Shown here: piece by piece, positions 1,743 to 31,940 of the stretch
Layout: the number at the start of each line of letters is the position of its first letter
Position numbering within the stretch: position 1 is the stretch's first letter
Virus record (IMG/VR): IMGVR_UViG_3300037466_002724
Span: 1-64,000 of that record
DNA length: 64,000 nucleotides
From: a virus
Strand: one strand, 5' to 3'
Program-made: the position numbers and the translations under genes
The notes under the pieces: model-generated
What the model saw: the letters and a program-made list of their open reading frames with translations, nothing else
Databases searched by the model: none
Told to the model about the DNA's origin: nothing

Positions 1743-1834
1743 CCAGACCAGCAATCAGGTGCTCAGCGCAGTCGCGCCGCTGGGATCACACCAATTTTTC
1801 AAGCGCGGCAAATTATTGGGCGCTCATAGGGCGC
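1743..1834 (+). repeat. Bipartite site E1: core CCAGA-N7-TCAGG (1743-1759) + GGGCGC-N5-GGGCGC (1818-1834)
   Basis: Read directly; 58 nt between core and tandem repeat; orientation opposite to the other six copies. Confidence 0.8.
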
Positions 1835-2323: not shown

Positions 2324-2974
2324 ATGCCCCGCCCAAAGGAAGAACAACGAGACGAGATCATCGCCGCCATCCGCCAGCACCTGCTGCTGGTCGGCCCGCG
2401 CGACTACGACCAGCTGATGGCCAAGTACCCTGGCGTCAGCCGGCCGACGTTCTTCCGTTACCTGAAGAAGGCCCGGGAGCTCGAGGAGGCTGCCGCCGCG
2501 GCGCAGAGCCCGGGCGCGCTCAAGATGGCGCAGCAGCGGATCCGCGCCAACGTCGAGCCGGCCGAGAAGGTGCAGGCGAAGATCAAAGCGCACCTGCCGG
2601 CCGCGCCGTCGCCGGCCGTGGTGGCGGCTGACCCGGCCAACTCGGCGCGTGCGTTCCAGTTCTTCGCCTTCTTTAACTCGATCGTCACCGATGCCGAGCT
2701 GCTGCGCGGCACTGCCGTGACCCGCAACGACGACGGCACCGAGAAGGTCCGAAACCCGGCCATGCTCGAGAAGAGCATGCGCGGGCGCCTGGCGATCCTG
2801 GACACGTACCTGCACAGCGTCGAGACCGTCTACAACATGGAGCGCATCCGCGAGCTGTACGACCTGGTGATCGAGGAGGTCGGCAAGGCCTCGCCGGACA
2901 TCCAGATGGCGGTGCTGGCGCGCCTGCGTGAGCTCGACAATAAGCGCGGCTTGACGATGAACGGATCGGTCTGA
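2324..2974 (+). CDS. terS: Terminase small subunit (putative)
   Basis: Directly upstream of and coupled to terL; N-terminal HTH-like segment (YPGVSRPTFFRYLKK); helical, 216 aa. Confidence 0.7.
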   Translation: MPRPKEEQRDEIIAAIRQHLLLVGPRDYDQLMAKYPGVSRPTFFRYLKKARELEEAAAAAQSPGALKMAQQRIRANVEPAEKVQAKIKAHLPAAPSPAVVAADPANSARAFQFFAFFNSIVTDAELLRGTAVTRNDDGTEKVRNPAMLEKSMRGRLAILDTYLHSVETVYNMERIRELYDLVIEEVGKASPDIQMAVLARLRELDNKRGLTMNGSV

Positions 2975-5073
2975 TGGCGTTCGGCCGCAAGAAGCCTGCC
3001 GGCAAGCAGCCGGACCCGTTCGGCTCGATCGGCGAGCTGGTCGCCCGGCTGGAGGCGCGCACCGGGTTCCGCGTCGACACCAGCGAGATCGGCGACAAGT
3101 CGTTCATCGAGTGGTGCGAGTACCTGGCGACGAAGGGCCTCAAGGTGGACGGCAAGCCGTTCCGCTTGGACGACCGGCCGGCGCTGCGCCCGATCTACGA
3201 GGCCATCCCCAGCACCCGCGAGGAGGCCAAGGACGCGATGCTGATCGCCATGAAGGCGACCCAGCTGGGCCTGACCGTCTGGGAGGTCCTGGCCAACATC
3301 TACATGGCCACGAAGTGGGAGCCGGTGTCGATCGGCATGTTCATGCCGTCGATGACGACCGCCATCCACAAGTCCGAGCACCGCTTCATGCGCATGGTCC
3401 GCTCGGCGCCCGACCTGTACAAGCTGCTGGTCAACGGGCGCGACGCCGAGGGCAACGCCCAGAAGGTGGGCGAGGGCAACGTCCTGACCCGTAAGGTCGG
3501 CGAGTCGCTGCTGCTATTCCTCTGGACCACCGGCAAGGTGACCACCGAATCGGTGCCGATGGACGTCGTCACGCTGGACGAGGTGCAGGAGATGGCGCTG
3601 GACCACATCGACAAGGTCCGGGCCCGTATGGGCGACTCGGAGGTCGCCTTCACGCTGATGCTGTCCACAGCCAACATGCCGGACCTGGACATCCATTTCT
3701 GGTATCTCGAGGGCACGCAAGAGGTCTGGCACACCGAGTGCCCGCACTGCAAGGCCATGTCGGACCTGTCGGACCCGGCCGGCGTCTTCCCGGACAAGTC
3801 GATCGGCTACAACACCGGCCAGCACGCCGGCGCGCCGATGAACGAGTACGTCTGGACCTGCCCGAGCTGCAAGGGATGGATCGAGGATCCGCAGATCGGC
3901 CGCTACATTGTCACCAACCCGGGCGCGAACCCGAAGCACCGCAGTTTCCTGCTGCCGCGCACAATCAGCCCGAAGATGACCCCGCGGAAGATGATCGAGG
4001 CCTGGCGCCGGGCGAAGACCGGCAACCAGAAGAAGAGCTTCTACAACCGGACCCTGGCGCGGCCGTACATCGACGCCGACCAGCTGCCGGTGACCATGGC
4101 ACATTGTATTGCCGCCATGCAGGCCGGCATCGCCGCCGGCATCCAGTGGGAGACGAAGCACGACCGCGTCAGCAGCTATTTCATGGGCATCGACCAGATG
4201 GGCAGCTTCAACGCCGTCATCGTCAAGAAGCGCCTGCCCAACGGGCAGCAGGCCGTCGTGCACGTGGAGGCTGTATTCGACAATGACCCGTTCGAGCGCT
4301 GCAGCGAGCTCATGGGCATCTTCAAGGTCTCCGTCTGCGTGGTCGAGCAGCTGCCGAACGTGAACGACGCGCGCCGGTTCGCGAACCGCCACCCGGGCCG
4401 CGTGTTCCTGGCCGGCTACGCGGACCTGCGCGACGACCAGATGGTCTGGGGCGACGACCTATCGAAGTCGGACCGGCGCACCAGCGAAGAGGACCGATCG
4501 CGCTACACTGTCACGCTGAACCAGTACAAGTGCATGCAGACATCGCTGTACCGCATCCGCGACGGTCACTGCATTTTCCCGAACGCCGACGACCTGGTGC
4601 AGGAGGTGGTCGAGAACGGCGAGCGCAAGCGGATCCCGCTGCTGCGCGACTGGGTTTTCGTCCACTACACGAAGACGGCGCTGGTGGTCGACGACGGCTC
4701 GGAGACCGTGAGCGGCAAGCCGAAAAAGGACATCGAGGCGCGCAAGCTGCGCATGAAGGTGCTCAAGGTCGGCATCGACCCGCACTACAGTTACGCGAAC
4801 ATGCTGTGCGACGTCGCCTGGGCGCGATCGCACGGCACGACATCCTTCATCCTGCCCGACACCGCCGCTACAGGAGCGCCCGTGATCCAACCCGAAGACA
4901 TCGGCGCCGCGCCGGTCATCAACGCCGTGCACGAGCTGCGCCAGGAGCTGACCGGCGACCGCTGCGGCGGCTGCGCGAACTACGACGAGACCGACAACAT
5001 GTGCATGGAACGCTGGTTCAAGGTGCGGGCTGAGGACCTGGGCTGCCCGATGTTCATCCGGGCCGAGTCGTGA
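2974..5073 (+). CDS. terL: Terminase large subunit, lambda GpA-like family
   Basis: Walker A-like KATQLGLT, Walker B VTLDEVQEM, CPHC/CPSC zinc finger, nuclease motif MGIDQMG; 699 aa. Confidence 0.88.
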   Translation: MAFGRKKPAGKQPDPFGSIGELVARLEARTGFRVDTSEIGDKSFIEWCEYLATKGLKVDGKPFRLDDRPALRPIYEAIPSTREEAKDAMLIAMKATQLGLTVWEVLANIYMATKWEPVSIGMFMPSMTTAIHKSEHRFMRMVRSAPDLYKLLVNGRDAEGNAQKVGEGNVLTRKVGESLLLFLWTTGKVTTESVPMDVVTLDEVQEMALDHIDKVRARMGDSEVAFTLMLSTANMPDLDIHFWYLEGTQEVWHTECPHCKAMSDLSDPAGVFPDKSIGYNTGQHAGAPMNEYVWTCPSCKGWIEDPQIGRYIVTNPGANPKHRSFLLPRTISPKMTPRKMIEAWRRAKTGNQKKSFYNRTLARPYIDADQLPVTMAHCIAAMQAGIAAGIQWETKHDRVSSYFMGIDQMGSFNAVIVKKRLPNGQQAVVHVEAVFDNDPFERCSELMGIFKVSVCVVEQLPNVNDARRFANRHPGRVFLAGYADLRDDQMVWGDDLSKSDRRTSEEDRSRYTVTLNQYKCMQTSLYRIRDGHCIFPNADDLVQEVVENGERKRIPLLRDWVFVHYTKTALVVDDGSETVSGKPKKDIEARKLRMKVLKVGIDPHYSYANMLCDVAWARSHGTTSFILPDTAATGAPVIQPEDIGAAPVINAVHELRQELTGDRCGGCANYDETDNMCMERWFKVRAEDLGCPMFIRAES

Positions 5074-5167: not shown

Positions 5168-5266
5168 GCGCCCGAACAGCGCCCGGCATGCGCCAGCAGT
5201 CGGGCGTTTTCCTTTCTGGGCAGGGACTTGCGCGCGCAGATGCCCAGATGGGCTATCAGGGTGTCA
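5168..5266 (-). repeat. Bipartite site E2
   Basis: GCGCCC-gaaca-GCGCCC at 5168-5184; core CCAGA-tgggcta-TCAGGgtgTCA at 5244-5266; 59 nt gap. Confidence 0.8.
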
Positions 5267-5564
5267 GGCCTCCAAACTCGCGCTCAAGATCAGCATCAGA
5301 GATACCCATCTGGTCGCAATATCCTTTGCAGTAGCGCTTCCCATTCCACCCACAAGGGAATGCAGTTTTAACCCGCTCTGAATGTGGCCATTGCTGGATG
5401 TCTAGCGATTCAGAGTCTGGTTCAAAATGTGCTGAGGGGCAGTTCCGGCAAGCAACCTTATGGCGGCGCGGCTCTGCGGGTTGATCGTCATAGATTGGTG
5501 CAAGGATCTTTATTTGTTTGGACTTCATAGAGATCGGCTTCAGCATCCAGCGTTGACTCAGCAT
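5256..5564 (-). CDS. Cys-rich hypothetical protein, lower GC
   Basis: CRNCP...FPCGW...YCKGYC pattern; start and stop codons both fall inside repeat cores. Confidence 0.55.
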   Translation of the reverse strand: MLSQRWMLKPISMKSKQIKILAPIYDDQPAEPRRHKVACRNCPSAHFEPDSESLDIQQWPHSERVKTAFPCGWNGKRYCKGYCDQMGISDADLEREFGGLTP

Positions 5565-5571
5565 CTGGGTG

Positions 5572-5988
5572 TCACAGCGTCTTGTAATTCGTCATCCAGT
5601 TCTCGAACTGCTGCTTCGCGTGGACGGTCTGAAAGTACGCCATCTCGCCCTCGATCCAGCCGCCGAGCTCAGCAACCTTCTTGCGGAACACGTCGAACGG
5701 GATACCGGGCTGATCGCTCTCGGCGGCCTGCGCCCGGCTGATTGCTTCGCGGATTGCGGCCGTCAGCTTTGACGCCACGCCTTGCGGAACCACGCGGAGG
5801 CTCGGATAGGCCTCGACGAAGATGAGCTCTGAATTCGGGTACGTGCTGACGTAATACGACTTCGCGGGTTTAGAGCCGACCGCCGGGAAGTCAACAATCC
5901 AACGGGTCTTGCAGTTGGCGACATAGTCGATGCGTGCCGACGGAATCGGGCCAGCTAATACTTTTTCCAGCGAGGCAGTGGCATTCAT
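5572..5988 (-). CDS. Hypothetical protein
   Basis: GGAG RBS and an upstream extended -10 (TGATACACT on the minus strand, ~6020-6028); stop TGA is part of TGACACCCAGA. Confidence 0.65.
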   Translation of the reverse strand: MNATASLEKVLAGPIPSARIDYVANCKTRWIVDFPAVGSKPAKSYYVSTYPNSELIFVEAYPSLRVVPQGVASKLTAAIREAISRAQAAESDQPGIPFDVFRKKVAELGGWIEGEMAYFQTVHAKQQFENWMTNYKTL

Positions 5989-6055
5989 AAACCCTCCAGT
6001 AGAATTGATCTGATGTACACAGTGTATCAGAAATGATTAAGCTGGTGTGTTGTTT

Positions 6056-6949
6056 TTACGCTGCGAACAGGTCTGCTTGCGCTACCGCTGCACTTGCTTT
6101 CGCCTCAGCCTCATCGCGCGCCTTGATGGCGGCCGCCAGGCGATCGTTGGCCACGTGGATATAGTCCGGATTGAGCTCGGTTCCGACGTACTGCCGACCG
6201 TGCTGGATCGCGACGGCGCCCGTAGTGCCGCTTCCGTTGAATGGGTCGAGCACGGTGTCTCCTGGCCGGCTGCCGGCGAGAATGCACGGCTCGACCAGGT
6301 CGGGAGGGAACACGGCGAAGTGCGCGCCTTTGAACGGCCTGGTGTTGATGTTCCAGACGCTGCGCCTGTTGCGCGTGTCGCTGCCAGTAAAAACGCTGCC
6401 GTCGCTGTGCATCGTGGTGGCGCCGGTGTGCTTGTTGCCGCCGATGCGGTCGGCGCGCACGCGTCCAGCCTGAACGGCCGGCTCCTGGAACGCTTCGCTG
6501 TTGAACAGATACTTCTGCTTCTTCGCCAGCAGGAACAGATACTCGTGGGACGTCGTGCACCGGTCCGTCACCGGTTGTGGCATGGCGTTCGGCTTGTTCC
6601 AGACGATGTCCTGACGCAGCACCCAGCCGTCGTCCTGGAGAGCGATCGCCAGGCGTGCCGGCACCATCAGCAGCTGCTTGCCCTTGCCGTAGCTGTCGCC
6701 GATGTTGATCCAGAGTGTCCCGTCGTCCGCGAGCACCCGGCGCACCTCCCTGAACACGTCGACCAGCTTCGATACGAATTCCGCCGGCGACTGCTCAAGC
6801 CCGATCTGTCCATCGTGGCCGTAGTCGCGCAAGCCAAAATACGGCGGAGAGGTGACACACATCTGCGCCGACTTATCCTGCAGCTCCTTCATCCTGGTAA
6901 TGCAATCGCCGATGAGCACCTGCGCGCCCGGCAAAATGAGATCGTTCAT
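6056..6949 (-). CDS. DNA methyltransferase, N4-cytosine/N6-adenine beta class
   Basis: Catalytic TSPPY, WINIGDSY, HFAVFP and SAM-binding VLDPFNGSGTTG motifs. Confidence 0.92.
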   Translation of the reverse strand: MNDLILPGAQVLIGDCITRMKELQDKSAQMCVTSPPYFGLRDYGHDGQIGLEQSPAEFVSKLVDVFREVRRVLADDGTLWINIGDSYGKGKQLLMVPARLAIALQDDGWVLRQDIVWNKPNAMPQPVTDRCTTSHEYLFLLAKKQKYLFNSEAFQEPAVQAGRVRADRIGGNKHTGATTMHSDGSVFTGSDTRNRRSVWNINTRPFKGAHFAVFPPDLVEPCILAGSRPGDTVLDPFNGSGTTGAVAIQHGRQYVGTELNPDYIHVANDRLAAAIKARDEAEAKASAAVAQADLFAA

Positions 6950-7083
6950 AAGGTAGTGCCAGGTTGTTTCCCGGCTGTTGAGGTTGATGTCACGTATTAT
7001 AATTGATTAACAGCAAGCTGTGTAAAGGAATGATCTTGCGGGATGTGGCGTGTTGCTTTCGCGCCATGCGGCTGCGCGCGCCT

Positions 7084-7173
7084 GCGCCCTATCGGCGCCC
7101 GAACACCATCGCGTTCTGGCGAGCTCATAGGAGAAACCGCGCCAGCTCCACCAGATTCAGCATCTGGGTGTCA
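7084..7173 (-). repeat. Bipartite site E3
   Basis: GCGCCC-tatcg-GCGCCC at 7084-7100; core CCAGA-ttcagca-TCTGGgtgTCA at 7151-7173; 50 nt gap. Confidence 0.75.
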
Positions 7174-7923
7174 GGCGGCCTTCGCTGGCATGGCGAGCTC
7201 GTAAGCTGCCGCGATCCTAGCCTCCGCCGTCGCGAAGTGTGCAGGATCATCCTCCATGCCGATGAACTGGCGGCCAGTGCGCGCGCATGCGGCGCCGGTT
7301 GTGCCGCTGCCCATGGTGAAGTCCAGCACCACCTGGCCGGGATTCGTGTAGGTCAGCACCAGGTATTCCATCAGCGCCAACGGCTTCTGGGTCGGGTGCA
7401 GCTTGCTGCGCTGCTTGTCGCTTGAGAAGAACTGGACGCTGCGCGGGTAGCGGCTGGTCGAGTCGTACACCGTCAGCTGCTTTCCTTCACCGTAGCACTC
7501 GCTGCCGACCGTCTTGCGCTTCGTGGTCTTGCGGGCGTGGCCGTGCGTCATCTGCGGGTTGTACGTCGGCGAGCCAGCGCAGAACACGAGCACCGACTCG
7601 TGCGCGCGGAGAGGCGCCCGCTTCGCATTCAGGAAGCCGCTGGCGTTCCCCTTCTCCCATACCCAGTCGTGCCGGAACCATCGTGGATTGCTCATCACCA
7701 GGGCGCTGGTGAATGGCTGGCTGGCGGTGAACACGATGGCGCCGCCCGGCTTCACGATGCGGCGCAACTGCTCCCACATCTGTTCGAGGTCGATCACGGA
7801 ATCCCATGCGTTGCGAGTTGTGCCGTAGGGTGGGTCGGCAATTACCGCGTCGACGCTGGCGGCCGGCATGGTGCGCATCACATCGAGGCAGTCGCCAAGA
7901 TGCAGGGTATAGGGTCTCGTCAT
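7171..7923 (-). CDS. DNA methyltransferase, N6-adenine beta class
   Basis: DPPYG, HPTQKP and VLDFTMGSGTTG motifs. Likely start is the ATG at 7923 (MTRPYTLHLGDCL), 7 nt after a late-type motif. Confidence 0.92.
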   Translation of the reverse strand: MTRPYTLHLGDCLDVMRTMPAASVDAVIADPPYGTTRNAWDSVIDLEQMWEQLRRIVKPGGAIVFTASQPFTSALVMSNPRWFRHDWVWEKGNASGFLNAKRAPLRAHESVLVFCAGSPTYNPQMTHGHARKTTKRKTVGSECYGEGKQLTVYDSTSRYPRSVQFFSSDKQRSKLHPTQKPLALMEYLVLTYTNPGQVVLDFTMGSGTTGAACARTGRQFIGMEDDPAHFATAEARIAAAYELAMPAKAA

Positions 7924-7986: not shown

Positions 7987-8084
7987 GCGCCCGATCGGCG
8001 CCCCAATTCGCATTGTGATGCGTCAAGGCATTGTATCAGAAAAGATAAATCCAATGGGCAACCTGACTTTAAGTCTGGGCCTCA
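7987..8084 (-). repeat. Bipartite site E4
   Basis: GCGCCC-gatcg-GCGCCC at 7987-8003; core CCTGA-ctttaag-TCTGGgccTCA at 8062-8084; 58 nt gap. Confidence 0.8.
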
Positions 8085-8162: not shown

Positions 8163-8891
8163 ATGCGCCGCTACCACTGGAGGCCGGACCTCCCCGATCA
8201 CCGCGACTTTCTATATTCCCTGCACCAGCCGGCCGCGACCGCGCTGCCGCAGCAGGTTGACCTGCGCGCGCACTGCCCGCCGGTCGTCGACCAGGGCCAG
8301 CTCGGCAGCTGCACCGCGAACGCGCTGGCCGGCGCCATGGGCTTCATCCATCCCGGCGCGCCGGCGTTCTCGCGCCTGTTCGTCTACTACAACGAGCGCG
8401 CGATCGAGGGCACGATCGGCCAGGACGCGGGCGCCATGATCCGCGACGGCGTCAAGTCGCTGGCCAACCAGGGTGTCTGCCCGGAGACCGACTGCCCGTA
8501 CAACATCGCCCGCTTCACCCGCAAGCCGACCAAGAAGGCCTACAGCGACGCGCTCAAGACGAAGGCCACGTCCTACCTGCGCCTGGTCACGCTCGACGAC
8601 ATGCTGCAGTGCCTGGCGGCCGGCTTCCCGTTCGTGTTCGGCTTCACGGTCTACGATGCGTTCGAGTCCGAGGCCGTGGCCAAGACCGGCGTGCTGAACA
8701 TGCCGGGCAAGGGCGAAAAGGTCCTCGGCGGGCACGCGGTGATGGCGGTCGGTTACGACATGGCGGCGCGCCGGCTGATCGTGCGCAACAGCTGGGGCGC
8801 CGACTGGGGTCAGGCGGGCTACTTCACCATGCCGTTCGACTACATCACGCACCGCGGCCTGTCCGACGACTTCTGGACGCTGCGCGCCTGA
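8163..8891 (+). CDS. Papain-like cysteine protease (peptidase C1)
   Basis: VDLR...VVDQGQLGSCTANA (catalytic Cys), GGHAVMAVGY (His), IVRNSWGADWG (Asn). AAGGAG RBS; late motif at 8121-8136. Confidence 0.92.
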   Translation: MRRYHWRPDLPDHRDFLYSLHQPAATALPQQVDLRAHCPPVVDQGQLGSCTANALAGAMGFIHPGAPAFSRLFVYYNERAIEGTIGQDAGAMIRDGVKSLANQGVCPETDCPYNIARFTRKPTKKAYSDALKTKATSYLRLVTLDDMLQCLAAGFPFVFGFTVYDAFESEAVAKTGVLNMPGKGEKVLGGHAVMAVGYDMAARRLIVRNSWGADWGQAGYFTMPFDYITHRGLSDDFWTLRA

Positions 8892-8935
8892 TCCCAGGTA
8901 AGGCCATGGCGCCGTCGTGAACCGATACTGGCGCC

Positions 8936-10989: not shown

Positions 10990-11088
10990 GCGCCCTATGA
11001 GCGCCCGGATTGTGGAATGCGGGAAAAAAATGCCTTTATTCACAGGAGGTTCAGGTAGATATTACCCTGATTCCGTATCTGGGCGTCA
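10990..11088 (-). repeat. Bipartite site E5
   Basis: GCGCCC-tatga-GCGCCC at 10990-11006; core CCTGA-ttccgta-TCTGGgcgTCA at 11066-11088; 59 nt gap. Confidence 0.82.
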
Positions 11089-12941
11089 GGATCGGCGCGC
11101 CGGGACGTGTCCGGCCAGCACCAGCATGCGGCGCTCGCCGAGGGCGCGTTCGGTGGCGGCTACGATCTCCGCGCGGTCGACCCTGGTTCCGGCGAAGTGG
11201 CGCAGGGCATTGAACAGCCGTCGGCGCATCCGCCGCATCCGGAACTTGCCGCGGGTCGTGTAGCCAGCCAGGCGCCGGAGCTGGCGCGCGCTGGGCGCCT
11301 TTCTCCGAAAGTCGACAGTGATCTCGATGGCGTCTGTCACGATGCCCCGCCGGCACGCCGATCGAACGCGAAGTGCGCCAGGATCCCCAGCAGCAGCAGG
11401 ATGACGGCGTCCTGACTGTAGTCCGGCGACACGAAGGCCTGCGCCCGGTTCGCGAAAAACACGGCGTAGGCCAGGAGCCCGGCGCCGAAAAACACCCGCG
11501 TGATGATCTTGTCCATGATCGGTCCTACCGTCTCGTTTTTGGGTATTGATAATCTACGTCATGTTTCTCGTTGTGCTGCTTTAGCTTTGTCAAGTGCCAG
11601 CCGCGGCAAAGTCTGCACTCATACATATAAAGCTTAACGCTGGTCTCGGATTGGAGGCATTGGCCGGCCGCCCGGGCGCCGAACTCGTCCGAGTACCGGC
11701 GCTTGCCCTCGCAGCCGCGCAGGATCTTTGAGACCAGCATTCCGGAGCGGCGCAGGGGCTGGGTCATCGCGGCGACTTCGTGTGCAGGACGACGACGGGC
11801 CCTGTCAGCTGGTTACTGTAGGTCGCGGCCAGGTCGGCGCCGACGACGACGTCGCCGATCGCGTCGCGCACCGGGTGGTGCCCTGGTAGACGCTGCAGCA
11901 CCTCGATCAGCTCGGTGACAGTCACGGCATGGCCCTCCCGATCTCGACGGCGGCGCGGAAGATGGCGAGACGCAAAGAGGCTGCCGGATCATCGCCGACC
12001 GGCGCGCTTGCCTTGCCGTACCGGTCCATCACTGAATCGCCCACGCGCCAGAAGCCAGCCTCGATCCACACATCCTCCTGCAGGTGTGCCGCCAGCTCTA
12101 GCGCCTGCCCGCTGTCGCGCCGCGGATCCCAGAGCATGTCGCGCGCGATCTCGTGGCCCTGGTCGCGCAGCCAATCGTAGTCCCAGTCGGCGCGCGCTTT
12201 GCCGGCGGCCTTGGCGGCGAGGGCGAGCTGGTCGCGGTCATCCTGCATGCTGCGCCTCCTTCCACTCCAGAAACGGCCGGCGCACCAGCTCGTGAAACCG
12301 CTCGGCCGCGCCGGCATTCGTGTCGAGCTCGTTGCGGCTGTAGATGCCGCAGGAGGCCAAAACGAACTCCTTGGCGCATTCCTCGTCGAACTCGCCGGCG
12401 GTGCCCGACTGGGCGGCCAGGTGCTCGATCCAGGCCTGGAACTGCCGGTCGCGGCAGAAGACGCAGGCCATGATGCAAAGGTCGCGAGTGCTCACGGCTT
12501 CACCGCCTTGGCTGGAGACAGGCAGCTCACCAGCCGGAAAATGTCGGCATCGAGCTCGCTGTCGAAACCCATGGCCTCGGCCAAGTCGAAATGCCAGTGC
12601 GGAACGCCGGCGCGTTTTCCCCACTTCGGGATGCGCTGCAGGTAGGTTATTCCACTTTTGCTGTGTGTCGTCTCGCGCGCGAGAACCCACATGCGGCGAC
12701 CACGCCAGACAAACTGGTCGGGATAGTTGTTCAGCCCGTGGCTATCCAGACCGTCAGGCCAGCGCCACCGGCCGTCCTCGTAGATCGCAAGGTCTTTCCC
12801 GAACCGACCACCTGGCGCGCTTTGCACCTCGTAGGCACCATCCCGCACCGGTGGTGTCGTGCACGGGATCCAGTCGGTGACCTGCGGCTGTTCGTCGAGC
12901 AGGCGCTCCATAGTCCGCTTCGTCGGTCCGCGGCGGCTCAC
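11086..12941 (-). CDS. Run of small coupled hypothetical genes (approx. 11086-11340, 11337-11517, 11525-11767, 11922-12248, 12238-12495, 12492-12941)
   Basis: Consecutive minus-strand ORFs, several with overlapping stop/start codons. 11525-11767 has a C-x-GK...YECRLCRGWHLT zinc motif. Confidence 0.55.
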
Positions 12942-13925: not shown

Positions 13926-14024
13926 GCGCCCTATCAGCGCCCGAAGTTAATCGAAATTGATGTAAGTAACTGTACCACAAATGATTAAGTCTGTGCGGAA
14001 ACCAGATTGATTGTCAGGTATTCA
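13926..14024 (-). repeat. Bipartite site E6, with an internal sigma70-like extended -10
   Basis: GCGCCC-tatca-GCGCCC at 13926-13942; core CCAGA-ttgattg-TCAGGtatTCA at 14002-14024; 59 nt gap containing TGGTACAGT on the minus strand. Confidence 0.82.
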
Positions 14025-15772: not shown

Positions 15773-16992
15773 GCGCGACCTCCGCTGGTCAGCTTGAAGA
15801 TGATGATGAAGAGCGCGACACCGATCGCTATGACGGCGAGCAGAGACAGTCGCACCTCTTTCTTTGACCGCGAGCCGTCACAACCGCGCAGGTAGCCGTA
15901 CCAGCCGATCAGGACGAGCAGCATCAGGAACTGCCAGATGATGGGGCCGGCGTTCACTCTGCCTCCCGCGCGGCGAGCATGGCGTCGGCAATCGCATAGG
16001 CGGCCTCTGCAAGGGCCTTTTTGAATTCGTTTGCGTCTCCATTCGACTTCGAAAACTGCTGCACGGTGCTGGCGTAGACTTGCGGCAGCACCTCGGCGGC
16101 AATTTCGTCCCGCTGGCGCTGGCTGATCATGTCGTCGAGCCAGGCAGCACCGCTATTCGGGACGCGCAGCTCGATGGCGGCGTATTCGCGCTTCGTAAGC
16201 CCTTTCTCGGACATGAAGCTGTTATTGATCGGGAAAGCTCCCTGATCTTCGTCGTTGTCGCTCATACCTTCCTTTCATCGCGCCCAGCTCGCGCCGGGCG
16301 CATCGGGGTTGATCAGATTGCCGGCACCAGACCCTTGCGGTCGGCTTTCTTGAGGGCGCGGTAGATGGCGCGGCCGCAGGTGGCGGACAGGCGGTGCTGG
16401 CCGAGGAAGATGGCGCCCGGCGCGCCAGGGAACGGCGGGATGAATACCTGCTTGCCCAGTTGGACAACGACCTCACGCGGGTGCTTGCCGATCTGGCGGA
16501 CGGCGCGGCGGGCGATCTTGGCTTGGATGTGGGACATGTGATTTTCCTAGTTGTGGTGGCTGGTGGTTATGCGGGCACGTCGGCCAGGTCGAACACGATG
16601 CCGCGGCAGTACGGCTCGCCGTCCTCGACGATCTCGAACGTCTCGTGCGGGATAGTGGTCCTGATGATCCAGCTGTAGCCAGCCTCGCCAGCCCAGACCG
16701 CATCGATGGTGACGCCGCCGTTCTCGCGCTTGAAGTAGTCGCGAAGGGCGTCCTGGTCGTCGCGGTCGATGCTGTCGAAGCTCGGGACAACGCCGGCGCG
16801 GTCGATGCGCGCGCTACCGCCGCCGTAGCAGCCGACCTCGTCGTGGATCGCACCGCGCAGCTCGAGCAGGTCGTCGCTGGCGCCGAAGGCCACGATCAGG
16901 CCTGCAGCTTTCGCCTGAGCGGCTTCGTCACGGGTGATCTCACTGCGGTATTCGCGGCCGGTCAGCAGCGCCGCCAGGTCATTGGCGTTCAC
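15769..16992 (-). CDS. Four small phage hypothetical genes (15769-15957 membrane, 15954-16265, 16313-16537, 16567-16992)
   Basis: Consecutive minus-strand ORFs with RBSs, some with overlapping stop/start codons. Confidence 0.6.
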
Positions 16993-17246
16993 GCCGGCAC
17001 CTTGCTGGTGACGTAGTCGATCGCCTGCTGGACGGTCTGGAGCTTTTCGCCGTCGTCGTTCGGGATATCGATGTCGAACTCGTCTTCGAGCGCGAACACG
17101 ATTTCGACCAGGTCCAGGGAGTCGGCGCCGAGGTCATCGACCAGGTTGCTTTCCGGCTTGACGTCCGCCTCGGCGAAACCGAGCTCATGAGCGATGACGC
17201 GCTTCACGCGGTCGACGGTGGTTGCGGCTTGAATATTGGTGTCCAC
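16989..17246 (-). CDS. acpP: Acyl carrier protein
   Basis: [25 protein letters not shown] with the phosphopantetheinylation Ser intact; acidic, 85 aa; GTG start with AAGGA RBS. Confidence 0.93.
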
Positions 17247-17260
17247 GTTTTCCTTCTGTT

Positions 17261-17359
17261 GCGCCCTATACGCGCCCGGGCTGTCTGGCGTGCCTGCAAA
17301 GTGCCGGCGATTGTTGGTGTTCCGTCGCCTTGACGCCCAGACCTCAAATCAGGTCGTCT
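17261..17359 (-). repeat. Bipartite site E7
   Basis: GCGCCC-tatac-GCGCCC at 17261-17277; core TGAcgcCCAGA-cctcaaa-TCAGG at 17331-17353; 59 nt gap to CCAGA at 17337. Confidence 0.82.
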
Positions 17360-24434: not shown

Positions 24435-27400
24435 ATGATCATCCTCTTCCGCAAGTCTCAACTCGCCCTGTTTGACGCGCCCGTGCACGTGGCGGCATCG
24501 GTGCGCAAGGACGGCACCGTCGTCAAGCCGCACATCCGCATCCAGAAGGTCGCGATAAAGCCGACGGCAGCCAAGCCGGTGCAGCTGTCGATCTTCGACG
24601 CGCCGCAGGCGGACGCCAAGCCGATCGTCATAAAGCCGCACACGCTGGACCTGTTCGCGCCGGAGGACCTGCCGGCGCCGCGCGACGACAGCGCCGAGAA
24701 GCTGGAGGCCCTGAGCAAGCGGGTCGGCCGCTACGCATCGGGGATGTCGCGTGCCCGCGACTTCACGGCCGCCAGTTTCGCCGGGCACCCGGTCGGTGTC
24801 GATGTCGGCCAGCTGTCGGGCCCAGCCATGGAGGCGCTGGCCGATGCAGTGGTCAACCGCCATACACCGGTTTTTATCGACTCCGGCGCCTACAGCCTGT
24901 TCCGCGCGCGCGAAAAGCGCCTGGCGGCCGGCGAAGAGGTCGAGCCGCTGGACTTCCACCAGGTGCTGGACCGCTATGACCAGTTCACGGACCTGATCGG
25001 CGAGAAGAACGAGGCCGAGGAATCTCTACCAAAGCCGATCCTGGTGATGCCGGACGTGATGGGCGACCAGGCCGGCTCGCTGGCCGAGCTGAAAAAGCAC
25101 GCGAAGTGGATCAACGTCGAGTGCAGCTTCGATGTGGCGCGCCCGCTGGTGCCGATGCCCAAGGGCGACATGAGCCTGACGGCCTACTATGACGCCGCGG
25201 TCGCCGCGATCGGCACGGATCGCTTCATCGTCGGGATCCCGGCCGTCAGCGGGGCGTGGACGCCAGAGCAGGTCACCGCGTTCCTGAAAGAGCGCAAGCC
25301 GCGCGCGGTCCACTTCCTGGGCGCGCTGCACGACAGCCGCCTGACGAAATGGCTGCAGGCCACGGTCGCCGCCGGCGTGTCGGACGAGATCGAGGTCACG
25401 GCCGACGCCTGCCCGCTCAAGAGCGCGATCGTGCCGCGCGACGGCTCCAAGCAGACCGGCGAAGAACGCGCCGCGAAGATCGTCGACAAGCTGGGCATGC
25501 GCGCGCGCACCAAGGAGCTCGAGAACGTCATAGCGCATTACGGCGGCGCCGAGGGCGTACGCGAGATGCTGGCCGAGGCCAGCTTCGAGGACCAGCAGCG
25601 GTTCATCGGCCTGATCTCCGATCTGTCCGGCAAGCCGCAGACCGAAGTGCGTACCGAGTACGGCCTGGGCGAGGGCCCGGTTGAGGGCGACACCAAGACC
25701 GAGGACGGCGTCGAGTACGTGCTGCGCAACGGCCGCTGGCACCGCGCCAGCCCGGAACAGGCCTCGGCGCCTGCGCCGGCAACAGCCGGTATCCCGGGCA
25801 GCGAGCGTCTGCTGCTAGTGGCGTGCGGCGGCAAGAAGCAGACCGGTGCCCACCCGGCCCGCGAGTTGTACACCGGCGCGCTGGGCGGGGTGATGAAGAA
25901 GTGGATGCCGGCCGGCGCGGCGCGCCCGGACGTGCACATCATCTCGGCCAAGCATGGCCTGGTGCACGGCGACACCGTCATCGAATCGTACGACCAGCGC
26001 ATGACGCCGGCGCGCGCGAAGGAGCTGGCGGCGCAACCGCTCGACCTGGCGGCCTTCAAGGGCAAGCGGTACCGCGACGTGTTCATCGCCGGCGGCGCCG
26101 ACTACCGCGAGGTGGCCGATGCCTATGTCCAGCAGCTGCGCGACGCCGGCGTGATCGCGCCGGATGCGACCGTGAACGCCACCAGCGGCGGCATCGGCGA
26201 GATCCGCGGCCAGCTGGGTGCGTACCTGCGGTCGATCGGCGATGAAAACGGTATAAACGATGTAAACGAAGTAAATCGTATAAACGGTATAAACGAAATA
26301 AACAGTATAAACCGTATAAATGAAATAAACGGTATAAACAATAACAACCAGGACGACACGTTCGGCGTTGCCGCCGGCACCAGCAAGGCGCGCCGCCGCG
26401 AGATCAACGCCGCGGTGATTGCCGAGCTGGAGGCAGACCGCCCAGACCCGGCGCTGCTCCGCCAGTACAGCGGCAACGGCGGCTGCGGTGACAGCCTGAA
26501 CGAGTTCTACACCGACCCGGGCGTCGCGCGCGCCATGTGGACGGCGCTGGGCAATCTGGGGTTCACCACGGGGACCGCGCTCGAGCCGTCGTGCGCCACC
26601 GGCGTGTTCCTGCACACCGCGCCCGATGGCGTGAAGGTCACCGGCGTCGAGCTCGACCCGGTCAGCGCCAAGGTGGCGCACGTGCTGCACGGTACGCGTC
26701 ACGAGATCATGACGGCCTCGTTCGAGCGGTTCGCCACCATGGACGACCGCCAGTTCGACGTGGTGATCGGCAACCCGCCGTACGGCCCGCGCGGCAAGCT
26801 CGCCAAGGACGACAAGAAATATATGTCGACCTGCGAGCAGTATTTCACCGACACGGCGCTCGACAAGTGCAAGCCGGGCGGACTGGTGGCGCTGGTGGTG
26901 CCAACTGGGATCATGGACGGTAAGAACAACCGATCCCTGCGCGCCGACATCCTGCGCAAGGGCGAGTTCCTGGGCGCCATGCGCATGCCGAATACGGCAT
27001 TCGAGCACTCGCACACCGAGGTGACCACGGACGTGGTTTTTCTGCGCAAGCGGCCGGACGATGTCGCCGGCGCGCTGGGCCCGCTAGACGACGAGCAGCG
27101 GCGCGCGCTGGGCGTGTGGGATGAGGAGTTCCTGGCCGGATCGTATTTCACCGGCCGCGGCGCGCACAACGTGCTGGGCACGATGACCGAGGGCTGGCGC
27201 GCGAAGGCCGGCATGGGTAACGACATTACGGTGGAGGGCTCGATGATCGGCGTCGCCGACGCGATCGCCGCGTTCCGGCCGGATTCGGTGGGCGTGGCTG
27301 CTGCTGACCTGACCGTTCCGCAGATCCTGGACAGCCTGCCGAACGACCACATGCGCGAGCGCGCCACCAATGGCGCGGCGCGCCGGCCGTACCAGAACAC

Positions 27401-30400
27401 GGCCAAGGTGGGTGACACCCGCACCGTGGACGGCGTTACCTATGTACTCCAGGGCGAGCCGCCGCGCTGGCACCGCGTCGACGAGTTCATGGCAGGGCCG
27501 GCCATTACCGAGGCAACCGAGCTCGCGCAAGAGATTGACGGGCTGTTCAACGGCCGAGCGGTGGACCGTCCGGCGCTCGAGGCAGCCGTACGCGCGTACG
27601 TCGCGAAATACGGCATCCCGGCCGACAACCCGGAGCTGATGACGGCGGCGAGCGTGGACAAGACGCTGTACCGCCTGGTCGGCGCCGTGAACCGCAATGG
27701 CGAGCTGTCGGACGTGGTGCTGGGCCGAGGCACGCGCAAGGTCGATGGTGGCTTCGACACTACCGCGCAGGTGCTGGCGCTGACCAGTGGCGAGTTCTCC
27801 TCTGCCGACCTGGCCGAGCGACTGGACCGGCCGGCCGACGAGGTCGAGGAGCAGTTGGCGGCCGACAGCCGCTACGCCTACCTCGGCGGCGACCGCTGGA
27901 CCACGATGGACGCCTACCTAACCGGCGAGCTCTGGCCCAAGCTGGACGCCGCGCGCGCGGCGCTGGCCGCTGGCGGCGATCTGCGCACCAAGCTCGAGGC
28001 GCAGGTCGCGGCACTGGAGAAGGCGATCGACCCGAAGGCGCTCGACGACGTCGATTTCCAGCTGAACAGCGCGTTCCTGCCGCTCGACGTGGTGGCCGCG
28101 TTCTTCACCTGGCGCGACCACGAGGGCCCGCATGCGAACGACTGGACCAAGAAGCAGCAGCCGATGGCGATCACGTTCGCCGGCGGCATCTACACCGTCA
28201 CCGGCGGCAACCAGTACGGTGATGCCAAGCTGCTCGACAAGTATCTGAACCGCTCCGGCATCCGCAAGGAAGAGGACCTGCCCAAGGTCGAGGCGCTGAA
28301 CGCCGAGTTCAAGGAGTGGCTGTGCGGTTCGCCGTACCGCGACCAGGTCGAGGACCTGTACAACCGCAAGTTCCGCGGCTACGTGGCGCCGGAATACTCC
28401 GATGAGCCTATGGACGTGCCGGGCCTGAACCCGGACCGCAGTGTGCGCAACTGGCGCTGGTCGAGCCTGCGCCGCTCGCTGGCGCAGGGCAAGGGCATCG
28501 TCGCGGACGACGTCGGCCTGGGAAAGACGCTGGGCGGCCTGCTGCTGGCACGCATGGCGCGCGTGCAGGGCAGCGCCCAGAAGCCGATCATCGTCGTGCC
28601 CAAGTCGGTGCTGGCCAACTGGTACGCCGAATCGCAGGCCTGGTTCCCCGGCGCGCGCATGCTGACGATCGGCGCCGACTTCATGTCGAAGAACGGCGAG
28701 CTGGTCGGCAAGGACGACAGCGCGGCCGAGCGCAAGCGCAAGTACCACGACCTGACCCAGAACGACTACGATTTCATCATCATCAGCGAGCCGGCGTTCG
28801 AGGAGATCGATCTCGACCCGATCACCAAAGAGCAATATTACAGCCAAGACTTCTGGGTGCAGCGCGGCGAGGCCATGGGCAACGCCGGCGACAAGCGCCG
28901 CAAGGCGATCCGCGAGAAGTATGAGCAGGCGCTGGCCCAGCGCGAGTTCGCGGACCGAACCGACGCCATCTACTTCAACGATCTCGGCATCGACATGCTA
29001 ATCGCGGACGAGATGCACCACCAGAAGAACCTGTACGCGGCGCGCGCACGCTTCGGCGAGTCGCCCAAGTTCCTGGGCGGCCAGGGCCTGTCCAACCGCG
29101 CGCTGGACTTCAACCTGAAAACCCGCTGGGTGCGCGAGCAGAACGGTGGCAAGGGCGTGCACGGCCTGACGGCGACCCCGACCAAGAACAGCCCGCTCGA
29201 GATTTACTCGATGCTGTCGCACATCGCGCCCGAGGCCTTCGAGCGGATCGGCGTGCGCAACTCGGAAGAGTTCCTGGACCGGTTCTGCGAATTCCAGCAG
29301 GACAAGGTGCTGTCGACGGCCGGCGAGATCGAGGACGCGCTGGTCGTCTCCGGCTTCAAGAACCTGTCCGAGCTGCGCGAGATCATGGCGCGCTTCATCG
29401 ACCGCCGGACCGCGGAGCAGGTCGGGCTTGAGCTGCCGCAGCGTCAGGACCGGCTGCACCTGGTGGACATGAGCAGCGACCAGGAGGACGTCTACGCCGA
29501 GCTGCGCGCGCTGGCCGAGGAGTCGAGCGGCAAGAAGGACGCCACCGGCGACAGCCACATCTTCGCCATCATGGACAAGATGAACAAGGCCGCGCTCGAC
29601 CTGGCGCTGCTCGACCCGGCCAAGTACGCCGGCCGCATGAGCCCGAAATACAAGGAGCTCGCCCGGCAGGCCGCCGAGGGCAAGAAAGACGGCGCGCAGG
29701 TTATCTTCTCCGAATACATCGATTCCCACGAGAAGATCGCTGACGCGCTGGTGGCAGCCGGGTTCGACCGCAAGCGCATCGCGATCATCAACGCGCAGGT
29801 GGCCGGCTCGGCAGTGAAACGCCAGAACATTGCCGACGCGCTCAACGCGGGCAAGCTGGACGCCGTGATCGGCAACTGCACCATGGCCGAGGGCCTGAAC
29901 CTGCAGAAGAACACGACCGACGTGCACCACCTGGACATCCCATGGGAGCCGGCCACGCTCCAGCAGCGCAACGGCCGCGGCCTGCGCCAGGGCAATCACA
30001 ACGAGGCGGTCCGGATCCACTCGTACCTGTCCAAGGGCTCGTTCGACGGCTACCGCTACCAGGCAGTCGCAGCCAAGAAGGACTGGCAGGACCTGCTGTG
30101 GAATGGCGGTGACCGCGTCGAGAACCTGGCGCGCGAGGGCACGTTCTCGCTCGACGACATGCGCATCATGCTGGCGGCCGATCCGGAAGCGGCGCGTGCG
30201 GCGTTCGAGGCTGACAGAGCCGCGGCGCTGCAGCGGTACGAGGCCGGCCAGCGCACCGAGGCTGTCTCCGAGTTCGTTCGGTTTCAGGACATGAAACGCA
30301 GTTACGGCGCGCTCAAGAACAAGGGCAGCGCCAGCGCCACCCGCCTGCGCGACAAGATCGAGGCGGCCAAGGCCTCCCTGTTCCGCAACAAGTATTTCCC

Positions 30401-31940
30401 GGCCAAAGACGCGCTCGACAGCGACACCGACGTTCTGATCCACCCGGAGACCGGCACCGTGCTGACGGCCGGCACCGGCATGGACTTCGGCGACGACGGC
30501 AAGATGGTCGTCACCGGCGTGAACATGCGCGCCGGCACCGTCACCCTGCGGCGCTACGCCGACACCACCGGTGCCCGCCACGTGACCCTGCCGCTCAAGG
30601 AATTCGGTGACGCTAAGCCGTTCACGCTGGATGCCGAGGCGGAGGCCGGCGAGGTACGCACCAAGATGGAAGAGGCGGCGGCCGCCAACCTGAACAACCT
30701 CAAGCACTGGGACGACGTCAAGAACATGCCGTCCTCTGTACTCGAGGCGAACCACGACCTGATCCAGCGCCAGATCAAGGAAGGTGCTAAGGCCTACAAG
30801 TTCCACATGCCGTACGGCTCGGTGCCGATGGTGAACCGCGAGACGGGCGAGCTCAAGATGGCCGAGAGCTACGAGCACACCAAGATGCACGACACGCACG
30901 ACTACCTGCTGCCGACGGACGCGGCAAAGGAGCGCGTCGCGCAGGCCTGGATGGCTTCGGAGCGCGGCAAGAAGTTTGGCAAGGAGACGTTCCAGGCGCG
31001 CAAGAACAGCCGTACGGAGTGGCGTAACAAGGTTGAGTACCCGGACGCCTCGTACAGCAACCGCAACTACAACCCGTGGACCTCGCTGCTGCGCGACCTG
31101 CACGGCAAGGATCAGGTCACCGGCATCGCCGAGCATCCGGCCGTGCGCGCTACCCGCGAGCGGTTCGAGCGCGAGCAGCTGGAGCGCGTGCGGCGGGCAC
31201 CCACCTTCAAGGAGGCGCTGGCCGAGGCCTTCCCGCTGGCGAAGCTGCCGGAGCACGGCGCCAGCGAAGGCACCAAGCCGACCTGGAACAAGAAGGCGCT
31301 GGCGATCCTGTGGGCGCGCGCCCGGCACGAGGGCCTGCTGGGCAGTCAGATGGACGAGCACCTGCCGACCAAGCCGAGCAAATGGAACCCGAAGGGCGAC
31401 AAGGTCCACGACGGCTACGCCTACCACCGCCCGGGCTACTCGGGCGAGGACAAGACTGTGCACGGCACCCTGCGCGACATCGCGGCCGGCTCCGGTCACC
31501 GCGACCTGGCACACGCTATGACCGTGTCGGCCATTCGCCACCACGACGGGCTAGATAAGGTTGCTGAGCTGCGCTCGTTGTCCCAATACAACAACAGTGA
31601 CCCGGACGCGCTCAAGGTCATGCAGATGCTGGCCCAGAGCACCGGATTGGTCGACAAGAAGGTGCACGAGCTCGACGGGTTCCAGAACGGCCTGCTGTCC
31701 ACGCATCAGTGGGCGCCGGACCGCAATCAAACCGTCGGCGATCGCATCCAGTCGCAAATCGAGCGGCTTCGAATTCCAGACACTGGATGGAAGGAGACGC
31801 TAACTCAAGCCCGCGCCGAAGCTCAAAAAATGGTCTCCCAAGGGAAGCTCCACCAGGACATCGTCAACGATGCCTATTACGACAAGGCCCGATTGGTACA
31901 GGTGATCGAGGCCGCCAAGTTCGCCAAGGAGGCCGCATGA
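24435..31940 (+). CDS. Giant DarB-like polyvalent protein: TGT-like barrel + DUF6884-like + N6-adenine methyltransferase + SNF2-type helicase
   Basis: FIDSGAYS/MPDVMGD/VHFLG; VACGGKK..ARELYTG..ISAKHGL; LEPSCATG and GNPPY; ADDVGLGKT, ADEMH, TATP, QRNGRGLRQG; 2501 aa. Confidence 0.85.
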   Translation: MIILFRKSQLALFDAPVHVAASVRKDGTVVKPHIRIQKVAIKPTAAKPVQLSIFDAPQADAKPIVIKPHTLDLFAPEDLPAPRDDSAEKLEALSKRVGRYASGMSRARDFTAASFAGHPVGVDVGQLSGPAMEALADAVVNRHTPVFIDSGAYSLFRAREKRLAAGEEVEPLDFHQVLDRYDQFTDLIGEKNEAEESLPKPILVMPDVMGDQAGSLAELKKHAKWINVECSFDVARPLVPMPKGDMSLTAYYDAAVAAIGTDRFIVGIPAVSGAWTPEQVTAFLKERKPRAVHFLGALHDSRLTKWLQATVAAGVSDEIEVTADACPLKSAIVPRDGSKQTGEERAAKIVDKLGMRARTKELENVIAHYGGAEGVREMLAEASFEDQQRFIGLISDLSGKPQTEVRTEYGLGEGPVEGDTKTEDGVEYVLRNGRWHRASPEQASAPAPATAGIPGSERLLLVACGGKKQTGAHPARELYTGALGGVMKKWMPAGAARPDVHIISAKHGLVHGDTVIESYDQRMTPARAKELAAQPLDLAAFKGKRYRDVFIAGGADYREVADAYVQQLRDAGVIAPDATVNATSGGIGEIRGQLGAYLRSIGDENGINDVNEVNRINGINEINSINRINEINGINNNNQDDTFGVAAGTSKARRREINAAVIAELEADRPDPALLRQYSGNGGCGDSLNEFYTDPGVARAMWTALGNLGFTTGTALEPSCATGVFLHTAPDGVKVTGVELDPVSAKVAHVLHGTRHEIMTASFERFATMDDRQFDVVIGNPPYGPRGKLAKDDKKYMSTCEQYFTDTALDKCKPGGLVALVVPTGIMDGKNNRSLRADILRKGEFLGAMRMPNTAFEHSHTEVTTDVVFLRKRPDDVAGALGPLDDEQRRALGVWDEEFLAGSYFTGRGAHNVLGTMTEGWRAKAGMGNDITVEGSMIGVADAIAAFRPDSVGVAAADLTVPQILDSLPNDHMRERATNGAARRPYQNTAKVGDTRTVDGVTYVLQGEPPRWHRVDEFMAGPAITEATELAQEIDGLFNGRAVDRPALEAAVRAYVAKYGIPADNPELMTAASVDKTLYRLVGAVNRNGELSDVVLGRGTRKVDGGFDTTAQVLALTSGEFSSADLAERLDRPADEVEEQLAADSRYAYLGGDRWTTMDAYLTGELWPKLDAARAALAAGGDLRTKLEAQVAALEKAIDPKALDDVDFQLNSAFLPLDVVAAFFTWRDHEGPHANDWTKKQQPMAITFAGGIYTVTGGNQYGDAKLLDKYLNRSGIRKEEDLPKVEALNAEFKEWLCGSPYRDQVEDLYNRKFRGYVAPEYSDEPMDVPGLNPDRSVRNWRWSSLRRSLAQGKGIVADDVGLGKTLGGLLLARMARVQGSAQKPIIVVPKSVLANWYAESQAWFPGARMLTIGADFMSKNGELVGKDDSAAERKRKYHDLTQNDYDFIIISEPAFEEIDLDPITKEQYYSQDFWVQRGEAMGNAGDKRRKAIREKYEQALAQREFADRTDAIYFNDLGIDMLIADEMHHQKNLYAARARFGESPKFLGGQGLSNRALDFNLKTRWVREQNGGKGVHGLTATPTKNSPLEIYSMLSHIAPEAFERIGVRNSEEFLDRFCEFQQDKVLSTAGEIEDALVVSGFKNLSELREIMARFIDRRTAEQVGLELPQRQDRLHLVDMSSDQEDVYAELRALAEESSGKKDATGDSHIFAIMDKMNKAALDLALLDPAKYAGRMSPKYKELARQAAEGKKDGAQVIFSEYIDSHEKIADALVAAGFDRKRIAIINAQVAGSAVKRQNIADALNAGKLDAVIGNCTMAEGLNLQKNTTDVHHLDIPWEPATLQQRNGRGLRQGNHNEAVRIHSYLSKGSFDGYRYQAVAAKKDWQDLLWNGGDRVENLAREGTFSLDDMRIMLAADPEAARAAFEADRAAALQRYEAGQRTEAVSEFVRFQDMKRSYGALKNKGSASATRLRDKIEAAKASLFRNKYFPAKDALDSDTDVLIHPETGTVLTAGTGMDFGDDGKMVVTGVNMRAGTVTLRRYADTTGARHVTLPLKEFGDAKPFTLDAEAEAGEVRTKMEEAAAANLNNLKHWDDVKNMPSSVLEANHDLIQRQIKEGAKAYKFHMPYGSVPMVNRETGELKMAESYEHTKMHDTHDYLLPTDAAKERVAQAWMASERGKKFGKETFQARKNSRTEWRNKVEYPDASYSNRNYNPWTSLLRDLHGKDQVTGIAEHPAVRATRERFEREQLERVRRAPTFKEALAEAFPLAKLPEHGASEGTKPTWNKKALAILWARARHEGLLGSQMDEHLPTKPSKWNPKGDKVHDGYAYHRPGYSGEDKTVHGTLRDIAAGSGHRDLAHAMTVSAIRHHDGLDKVAELRSLSQYNNSDPDALKVMQMLAQSTGLVDKKVHELDGFQNGLLSTHQWAPDRNQTVGDRIQSQIERLRIPDTGWKETLTQARAEAQKMVSQGKLHQDIVNDAYYDKARLVQVIEAAKFAKEAA
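26247..26348 (+). repeat. In-frame AT-rich 9-bp tandem repeat (AAY-NNN-RTA x10)
   Basis: aacggtata aacgatgta aacgaagta aatcgtata..., encoding NGINDVNEVNRINGINEINSINRINEINGINNNN. Confidence 0.9.

Follow-up and report, generated by a model that had tools for sequence, protein, structure and literature searches.

The window analysed here is the first 64 kb (64,000 nucleotides) of the 91,008-bp viral contig IMGVR_UViG_3300037466_002724, which has direct terminal repeats. Its intergenic regions carry copies of a bipartite element, made of a short dyad and a nearby tandem repeat, and we analysed this element at the gene block that follows the terminase. The large terminase gene (TerL, 2974-5073, plus strand) is followed by four minus-strand genes: orf102 (5256-5564), orf138 (5572-5988), methyltransferase 1 (6056-6949) and methyltransferase 2 (7171-7921), both methyltransferases being of the N6_N4_Mtase type. 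The start of methyltransferase 2 at 7921 comes from comparison with the relative G001; its longest open reading frame (ORF) extends to 8013. Rightward of this gene lie a papain-like protease gene on the plus strand, a conserved plus-strand gene at 8936 and an AraC-like gene on the minus strand. The phages bearing the element are temperate myoviruses of about 90 kb, including Bordetella phage vB_BbrM_PHB04 and phages like Pseudomonas phage Dolphis. PHB04 is the nearest isolated relative, with a TerL identity of 82%; a megablast of the region against isolated phages gave no match, and a TerL scan of metagenomes returned five loci only. Below, G000 is the window's own phage, and the other G and L handles denote relatives or stretches of relatives' DNA (G002 is PHB04).

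As the first-pass annotation had reported, the 17-mer TCAGCATCTGGGTGTCA occurs exactly at 5558-5574 and at 7157-7173 (plus strand), and the two copies bracket a unit that holds orf138, methyltransferase 1 with its sigma-70-like promoter (TACACA-17-TATAAT, 6996-7024, minus strand) and one tandem repeat. The window contains no other exact copy; with up to three mismatches the sole further match is 11072-11088, and in the shuffle control, which gave a mean of 0.13 matches, none of 100 shuffles reached 3. Both 17-mers sit in a four-member, 25-nt family (5244-5268, 5552-5576, 7151-7175 and 11066-11090), to which further dyad copies at 17331 and at 88052 (outside the window) and degenerate ones at 1743 and 8062 can be added. 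On the gene strand, the upstream gene terminates in a flank TGACRC that supplies TGA as its stop codon, and the dyad CCWGAT-N5-ATCWGG comes next; the stop codons of three genes fall in this flank (TGAC). Three dyads of the block lie on the plus strand. The copy at 5244-5268 is a complete dyad, CCAGAT-GGGCT-ATCAGG, with the flank GTGTCAGG, and supplies the last codons and the stop of orf102. The copy at 7151-7175, CCAGAT-TCAGC-ATCTGG with the same flank GTGTCAGG, is also complete and contains the methyltransferase 2 stop. The one at 5552-5574 contains the orf138 stop codon and retains the flank, one arm and the spacer; it matches the 7151 copy over 17 bases, then has one mismatch and two more equal bases, after which the second arm is gone. 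The earlier label of a "half core" describes it fairly, since the second arm is lost after 3 nt. A fourth dyad, CCTGAC-TTTAA-GTCTGG (8062-8078, plus strand), has a weak flank.

The shared 17 bases are less striking than they look, since 12 of the 17 are family-conserved arm and flank and the spacer variant common to both copies (TGCTGAA on the gene strand) recurs in the family. It is found in 6 of 137 other distinct units, in unrelated contexts; one of them lies upstream of methyltransferase 2 in G001, at a place where the window has a different spacer. From the unit counts, the probability that two of ten dyads in one genome share this spacer was computed as about 7%. The dyads flanking every known insert (5244/7151, 5244/5552, and the pairs in G001 and in G005) have different spacers, and 5552/7151 is the only pair sharing 6 of 7 spacer bases.

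Between the 5244 and 5552 dyads lies orf102, a small Cys-rich protein gene whose low GC content, 0.52 over 5251-5550 against about 0.65 nearby, had been noticed in the first pass together with the position of its TGA inside the 5244 dyad (there called core E2), and both observations hold: the stop codon (5256-5258) is inside the right arm. The closest homologue, with 89% identity, is about 17 residues longer at the C-terminal end, so that relative to it the window protein is cut at the dyad. The claim that the ATG of orf102 lies in the half core is true of the first in-frame ATG; the true start, however, is probably 5528, since eight homologues (83-105 aa) have their first residue level with residue 13 of the window ORF, which would leave the half core intergenic. 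The neighbouring orf138 (minus strand) is an orphan, as a search of 5.8 billion proteins retrieved nothing except the window's own copy. Methyltransferase 1 has a homologue with about 72-80% nucleotide identity in PHB04 in a different context: the two phages have in common only this gene and its promoter, and the neighbours differ.

The dyads are one half of a bipartite element, consisting of the 17-bp CCWGAT-N5-ATCWGG, often followed by GYGTCA, a phased spacer and the tandem repeat GGGCGC-N5-GGGCGC (D2; in its fuller form NGGGCGC-N4-NGGGCGC). Nine such elements lie between genes of this phage, in which every complete dyad is paired with a tandem repeat at a distance of 56-58 bp or, in a few cases, 47-49 bp; the half core at 5552 has no D2 partner. 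The D2 of the 5244 dyad (5168-5185, minus strand) is an orphan, since no minus-strand gene comes after it, and this TerL-adjoining element is homologous to the single element of L206; its 58-bp spacer holds a terminator-like hairpin of the TerL operon (5190-5207, plus strand), which is kept in L206. The D2 of the 7151 element is at 7084-7101 (minus strand; spacer of 49 bp) and that of the 8062 element at 7987-8004 (minus strand).

A combined-pattern scan of viral contigs retrieved 98 stretches on about 50 contigs, many of them of 80-98 kb, and the control with the reversed pattern gave 0 matches. The relatives' DNA fetched contains 138 distinct units, with a dyad-to-repeat gap of 56-58 in 113 and of 44-49 in 22. 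These two classes are one helical turn apart, indicating that helical phase is kept. Of the 138 units, 76 have complementary W positions in the two arms of the dyad, against 48% expected; this lack of covariation suggests that a dimer reads the dyad as double-stranded DNA rather than as a hairpin. Within the dyad, constraint is absent only at the central ~3-5 bases, the spacer between dyad and repeat is weakly conserved, and across units no conserved, promoter-like positions follow the tandem repeat. The repeat is oriented toward the gene downstream, with a distance from its end to the start codon of that gene that is often 6-18 nt, and the dyad is found in both orientations relative to genes and also at the head of the portal operon. 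The gene after the repeat begins with a different peptide at about 4 of 9 matched positions, a figure that compares starting peptides and not homology. No description of this bipartite element was found in the literature searched.

Comparison of the relatives at this locus indicates that the 1.9-kb block between the 5244 and 7151 dyads (orf102, orf138 and methyltransferase 1) is an insert bounded by dyads, as relatives have nothing or another gene there and the empty sites keep one dyad. In L206, L251 and L002 a single element lies between TerL and the next conserved plus-strand gene, leaving one dyad at the slot, and in L251 and L002 the slot holds zero minus-strand genes. In L206 the left side of the slot is homologous to window positions 5168-5260 and the right side consists of the last seven codons of methyltransferase 2. 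G001 has a different gene, of 245 aa, between two dyads, and its homology to the window resumes exactly at 7151. In the distant pair G005 and G006, a 1-kb, three-ORF insert between two dyads in G005 is matched by one hybrid dyad in G006, with the spacer of the left site and the flank of the right one. The first-pass annotation had proposed to look in related phages for empty sites that regenerate one core; for complete cores this is what L206, L251, L002 and G006 contain, while none of the relatives compared lacks only 5575-7173 or only orf102 (5256-5564).

The same pattern extends beyond the block. Homology between G000 and G001 breaks at 7151, 8066, 13926, 14025, 85103 and 88150, in all cases at or within 20 nt of element edges: at dyad edges for 7151, 8066 and 14025, and at or near tandem-repeat edges for 13926, 88150 and 85103. 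The nine elements stand in the same order in both phages, and in four phages orphan elements persist without a gene downstream of them. Taken across genomes, these comparisons show the ~100-bp conserved element islands as joints of cassette gain, loss and replacement. The breakpoints between relatives are scattered over dyad edges, dyad interiors and the edges of tandem repeats. Across units, the spacer is passed on mostly together with the repeat side (16 pairs, a mean of 1.8 differences) and less with the far side (12 pairs, a mean of 2.7), and exceptions are clear. No single fixed crossover point is apparent.

The origin of the tandem repeat is suggested by the integration machinery. The phage encodes a P4-type tyrosine integrase (65659-66945, outside the window) with an Arm-DNA-bind_3 (PF13356) N-domain and a catalytic domain, and no other gene of this phage has an arm-binding domain. 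The attP lies beside the integrase gene (G000 66950-67600, equal to L028 2950-3600), where 45 nt are identical to the 3' half of tRNA-Arg(ACG), and five tandem-repeat pairs surround its core. The neighbourhood of int was examined in the phage of the window and in 15 relatives. Pairs are present on both sides of the tRNA piece in G000, G001, PHB04, G014 and G024, at ~135 bp to each side in G000 and G001; four more relatives (G015, G018, G021 and G027) have pairs between int and a tRNA-Leu piece, and three have a pair beside int with no tRNA piece found. The tRNA pieces flanked by or near pairs are thus of three kinds (Arg, His and Leu). PHB04, which targets tRNA-His, has its own AGGGCGC variant at attP and in its intergenic units alike. 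Integrase residues 1-100 are 58-76% identical in the 15 relatives, and the remainder is 17-26% identical in a second lineage. Two complete contigs without this integrase, picked by pattern scan and not by kinship, have one repeat match each, against 6-12 in integrase-bearing phages. Because it flanks the attachment site in at least seven of the 16 checked and tracks the conserved arm-binding domain, the tandem repeat is most likely an integrase arm-type, att-like site. G004 (tRNA-Gly) has only single heptamers near attP; in four relatives no pair was found beside int in the DNA fetched, and the attP of G005 and G006 was not found beside int.

The dyad behaves differently. Its core CWGA-N7-TCWG is unchanged across phages that target tRNA-Arg, His, Gly and Leu with unrelated integrase catalytic parts, and it does not follow the core specificity of the integrase. 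A mosaic of the integrase itself was seen in 16 phages (L028, L155-L159 and L257-L268), in which the core-binding and catalytic domains fall in two lineages with the tRNA targets Arg, His, Gly and Leu. Two explanations of the dyad by the target tRNA were tried and rejected. Mimicry of a tRNA, with the dyad as anticodon arm and the repeat as a copy of the acceptor strand, fits tRNA-Arg here and fails in PHB04 (tRNA-His, AGGGCGC) and in G004 (tRNA-Gly); an nCAGn stem common to all target tRNAs fails for the tRNA-Leu T-stems of G018 and G027. A perfect CCAGA-N7-TCTGG dyad was also noted 13 nt from the int start in G000.

On these comparisons we favour, with a probability of roughly 0.55, the reading in which the 17-mers represent the part common to two dyad copies of a bipartite boundary element that serves cassette exchange, with integrase docked at it and exchange proceeding mostly by short homology. 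The tandem repeats would be bound by the arm-binding domain of the phage's P4-type integrase and the dyad by a dimeric protein, the two being held on one helix face as a protein-DNA complex at the borders of accessory units. For most exchanges the elements would act as portable short homology, in the manner of the PeSL (promoter-early stem-loop) cassettes discussed below, rather than through conservative integrase crossover at a fixed point. The half core at 5552 would then be a truncated dyad without arm repeats, the remnant of a secondary join by which orf102 came to lie behind orf138.

Several observations weigh against this reading. The 7151 dyad with its flank matches the anticodon arm and variable loop of tRNA-Arg, outside the loop, at 10 of 10 arm bases and 6 of 7 flank bases, a match that fits direct action of the integrase; it is not general: the flank is another one in G014, which likewise targets tRNA-Arg, and the match fails in PHB04 and G004. 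A RecT or ERF annealing protein was looked for in the phage and not found, so short-homology exchange would depend on a host enzyme or on one that went unrecognised. The TerL-adjoining element, which has no downstream gene, also counts here, and a purely regulatory role fails to explain it. A more active part for the integrase, assisting cassette exchange at the dyads, is kept as a minority view that we think rather improbable. In its strongest form, integrase docked at nine attL-like half sites would drive or assist the exchange, making an integron-like system out of attachment-site parts with the 5552/7151 pair as a recent product; this too we consider doubtful.

The single-event version of integrase action is what the first-pass annotation had put forward, and we find it unlikely. 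In it, a 1.6-kb circle made up of the tandem repeat, methyltransferase 1, orf138 and a dyad would have entered a half site beside orf102 in a single conservative step and left the 17-mers as attL/attR-like products; orf102 would itself be a second such cassette. The direct repeats, with 6 of 7 spacer bases, one arm and flank, do bracket a self-contained unit; the complete dyads are phased with probable integrase arm sites and persist singly at the relatives' empty sites; and the 5+7+5 layout of the dyad is that of the tRNA-Arg anticodon arm serving as attB, an arm that the dyad of this phage matches outside the loop. However, no relative compared lacks just this unit, and PHB04 has only the methyltransferase and promoter, among other neighbours. 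The similarity of the 5552 copy stops inside the second arm and not at the spacer boundary, the shared spacer is common in unrelated contexts, and the ~3-5 free central bases are short for an overlap region. Crossover points differ between relatives, and the dyad stays the same where the core-binding and catalytic domains are 17-26% identical and other tRNAs are targeted. For orf102 the single-integration scar fails, since the spacers on its two sides are unrelated (TGGGCTA and CTCAGCA) and such sites would not be products of one conservative exchange. What survives of the original proposal is therefore the cores as recombination joints, with cassettes gained and lost at dyads and att-like tandem repeats beside them; their identity as attL and attR of one event is not supported, given the recurrent spacer variant and the varying breakpoints.

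The elements could alternatively be purely regulatory, each an operator with a docking site for the downstream gene, in which case the joints would reflect the usual placement of mosaic breaks at gene borders and the 17-mer identity would be due to chance sharing of a common spacer variant. The aim of the repeat at the downstream gene, close before its start codon, agrees with this, as do the size and symmetry of the dyad, which resemble a helix-turn-helix dimer operator, the equal order of the nine elements in G000 and G001, and the ~7% chance of two shared spacers. We nevertheless hold it to be improbable: orphan elements are kept in four phages where there is no gene to regulate, promoter-like positions after the repeat are not conserved, tandem repeats cluster at attP, empty sites contain hybrid dyads, and no sigma-54 activator is encoded. 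That the core works behind each gene as a hairpin of RNA or DNA, a terminator or a processing site, as the stop codons of three genes in the flank and the inverted-repeat arms might suggest, is very improbable, because the arms vary without covariation, a T-run is absent, the dyad can run with or against the genes and also heads the portal operon, and its spacing to the repeat keeps helical phase.

Other candidates for the element's parts were tried and rejected. The IHF consensus occurs in the spacer in only 8 of 113 units at one position; GANTC (CcrM-type) sites are not enriched in the dyad (36 observed, 42 expected); and the AraC-like protein cannot be the binder of the repeat, its gene being missing in G005 and G006, which carry elements. 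A sigma-54 promoter with enhancer fits the GG/GC spacing loosely, with no activator gene in five phages. A serine recombinase was looked for and not found. A weak AAnCCC-N11-GGnTTT pattern was seen in the middle of the 57-bp spacer, at positions -43 to -21 before the repeat (113 units); it does not match the IHF consensus and could mark a third site of protein binding, perhaps by a protein that bends DNA. At one matched position, the dyads of L176 (1555) and L182 (3334) have the spacer TTCGCAA and that of L237 (12048) its reverse complement TTGCGAA, the flank orientation being unchanged.

The closest known likeness is to an attL half site of the Lambda/P4 type, in which a core (B-O-C') and tandem P' arm-type sites are bridged by Int over a bend. 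Here too, a dyad with a variable centre and two direct repeats in tandem keep a distance of ~50-60 bp and a fixed helical phase; these repeats also stand on either side of the actual attP of the phage, and the arm-binding N-domain of the integrase is conserved along with them. Unlike attL, which is one site, the element has nine intergenic copies with spacers that vary by site, and its dyad is independent of integrase core specificity and of attB. Integron attI/attC arrays offer a second parallel. The attI1 site likewise joins a simple site to two direct repeats, to which the integrase binds. As in integrons, single- or few-gene units are arrayed in one orientation, separated by elements like recombination sites, and the docking element persists when empty. 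In contrast to integrons, the integrase is P4-type with an arm domain and not IntI, no attC-like folded structure is present, some cassettes carry their own promoters (methyltransferase 1), and the positions of the elements are stable among relatives.

The PeSL cassettes of T4-type phages combine a sigma-70 promoter with a terminator hairpin (PMC2839356, PMC4122927). They resemble the present case in that short conserved elements punctuate hyperplastic regions of non-essential genes, with insertions, deletions and replacements ending at them (PMC2839356, PMC4122927). Exchange between neighbouring copies could yield mini-circles in both. The element described here differs in having no promoter or terminator at a fixed place, in its putative protein-binding dyad and integrase arm repeats, and in belonging to temperate phages. 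Among regulatory motifs, the Cluster A stoperators of mycobacteriophages bind the immunity repressor. Together with the SAS/ESAS motifs of Cluster K (PMC3203893), stoperators are asymmetric intergenic motifs that run along transcription, near start codons, some with an upstream inverted repeat, as is the case here; their sequences are unrelated to our element and have no link to attP or integrase.

In phages, untargeted mosaic recombination is mostly held responsible for the acquisition and swapping of accessory genes, among them methyltransferases and further genes for anti-defence or host modification, and here a defined element lies at the joints, half of which appears to be borrowed from the integration machinery. 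If the integrase docks there, it would have a second job inside the phage genome, organising or exchanging accessory units. The domain pattern of the integrase is also a clean natural example of attB specificity changing while the arm architecture is retained, the arm-binding domain being kept and the core-binding and catalytic parts swapped.

The remaining elements of the window are distributed over its first 18 kb. One lies at 1743-1834 (plus strand; dyad 1743-1759, D2 1817-1834), and another, ahead of the AraC-like gene, at 10990-11090 (minus strand; D2 10990-11007, dyad with flank 11066-11090). The element at 13926-14018 (minus strand; D2 13926-13943, dyad 14002-14018) is shared with G001 even though both flanks differ, and that at 17261-17353 (minus strand; D2 17261-17278, dyad with flank 17331-17353) stands between the divergent acyl-carrier-protein-like and portal genes. 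The former gene (16989-17246), which has a PP-binding domain, is directly downstream of the element. On the right of the terminase block, the window carries its papain-like cysteine protease gene (8163-8891) as an insertion when compared with G001, whose homology ends at the 8062 dyad; this dyad is at the left edge of the insertion, and no dyad is present at its right edge. Between this gene and the conserved plus-strand gene lies a promoter-like box, GTCGTGA-N4-A-N3-T (8909-8935), which is found directly 5' of the conserved gene in all relatives (L206, L251, L002 and PHB04); in the empty-site phages it is ~20-35 nt from the dyad.

The orf102 family has the conserved motifs C..CPS.H, FPCGWNG and CKGYCD, with no Pfam or PHROG match. 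Scans for the contexts of its members returned one truncated match in viral contigs and none in genome contigs. Members occur on contigs of up to 375 kb, one of them on a 90-kb viral contig without other DNA similarity to the window region. Farther along the window, within a 2501-aa DarB-like ORF (24435-31940), an AT-rich unit of 9 nt (AAACGNTAT-like) is repeated in tandem ~13 times at 26237-26353.

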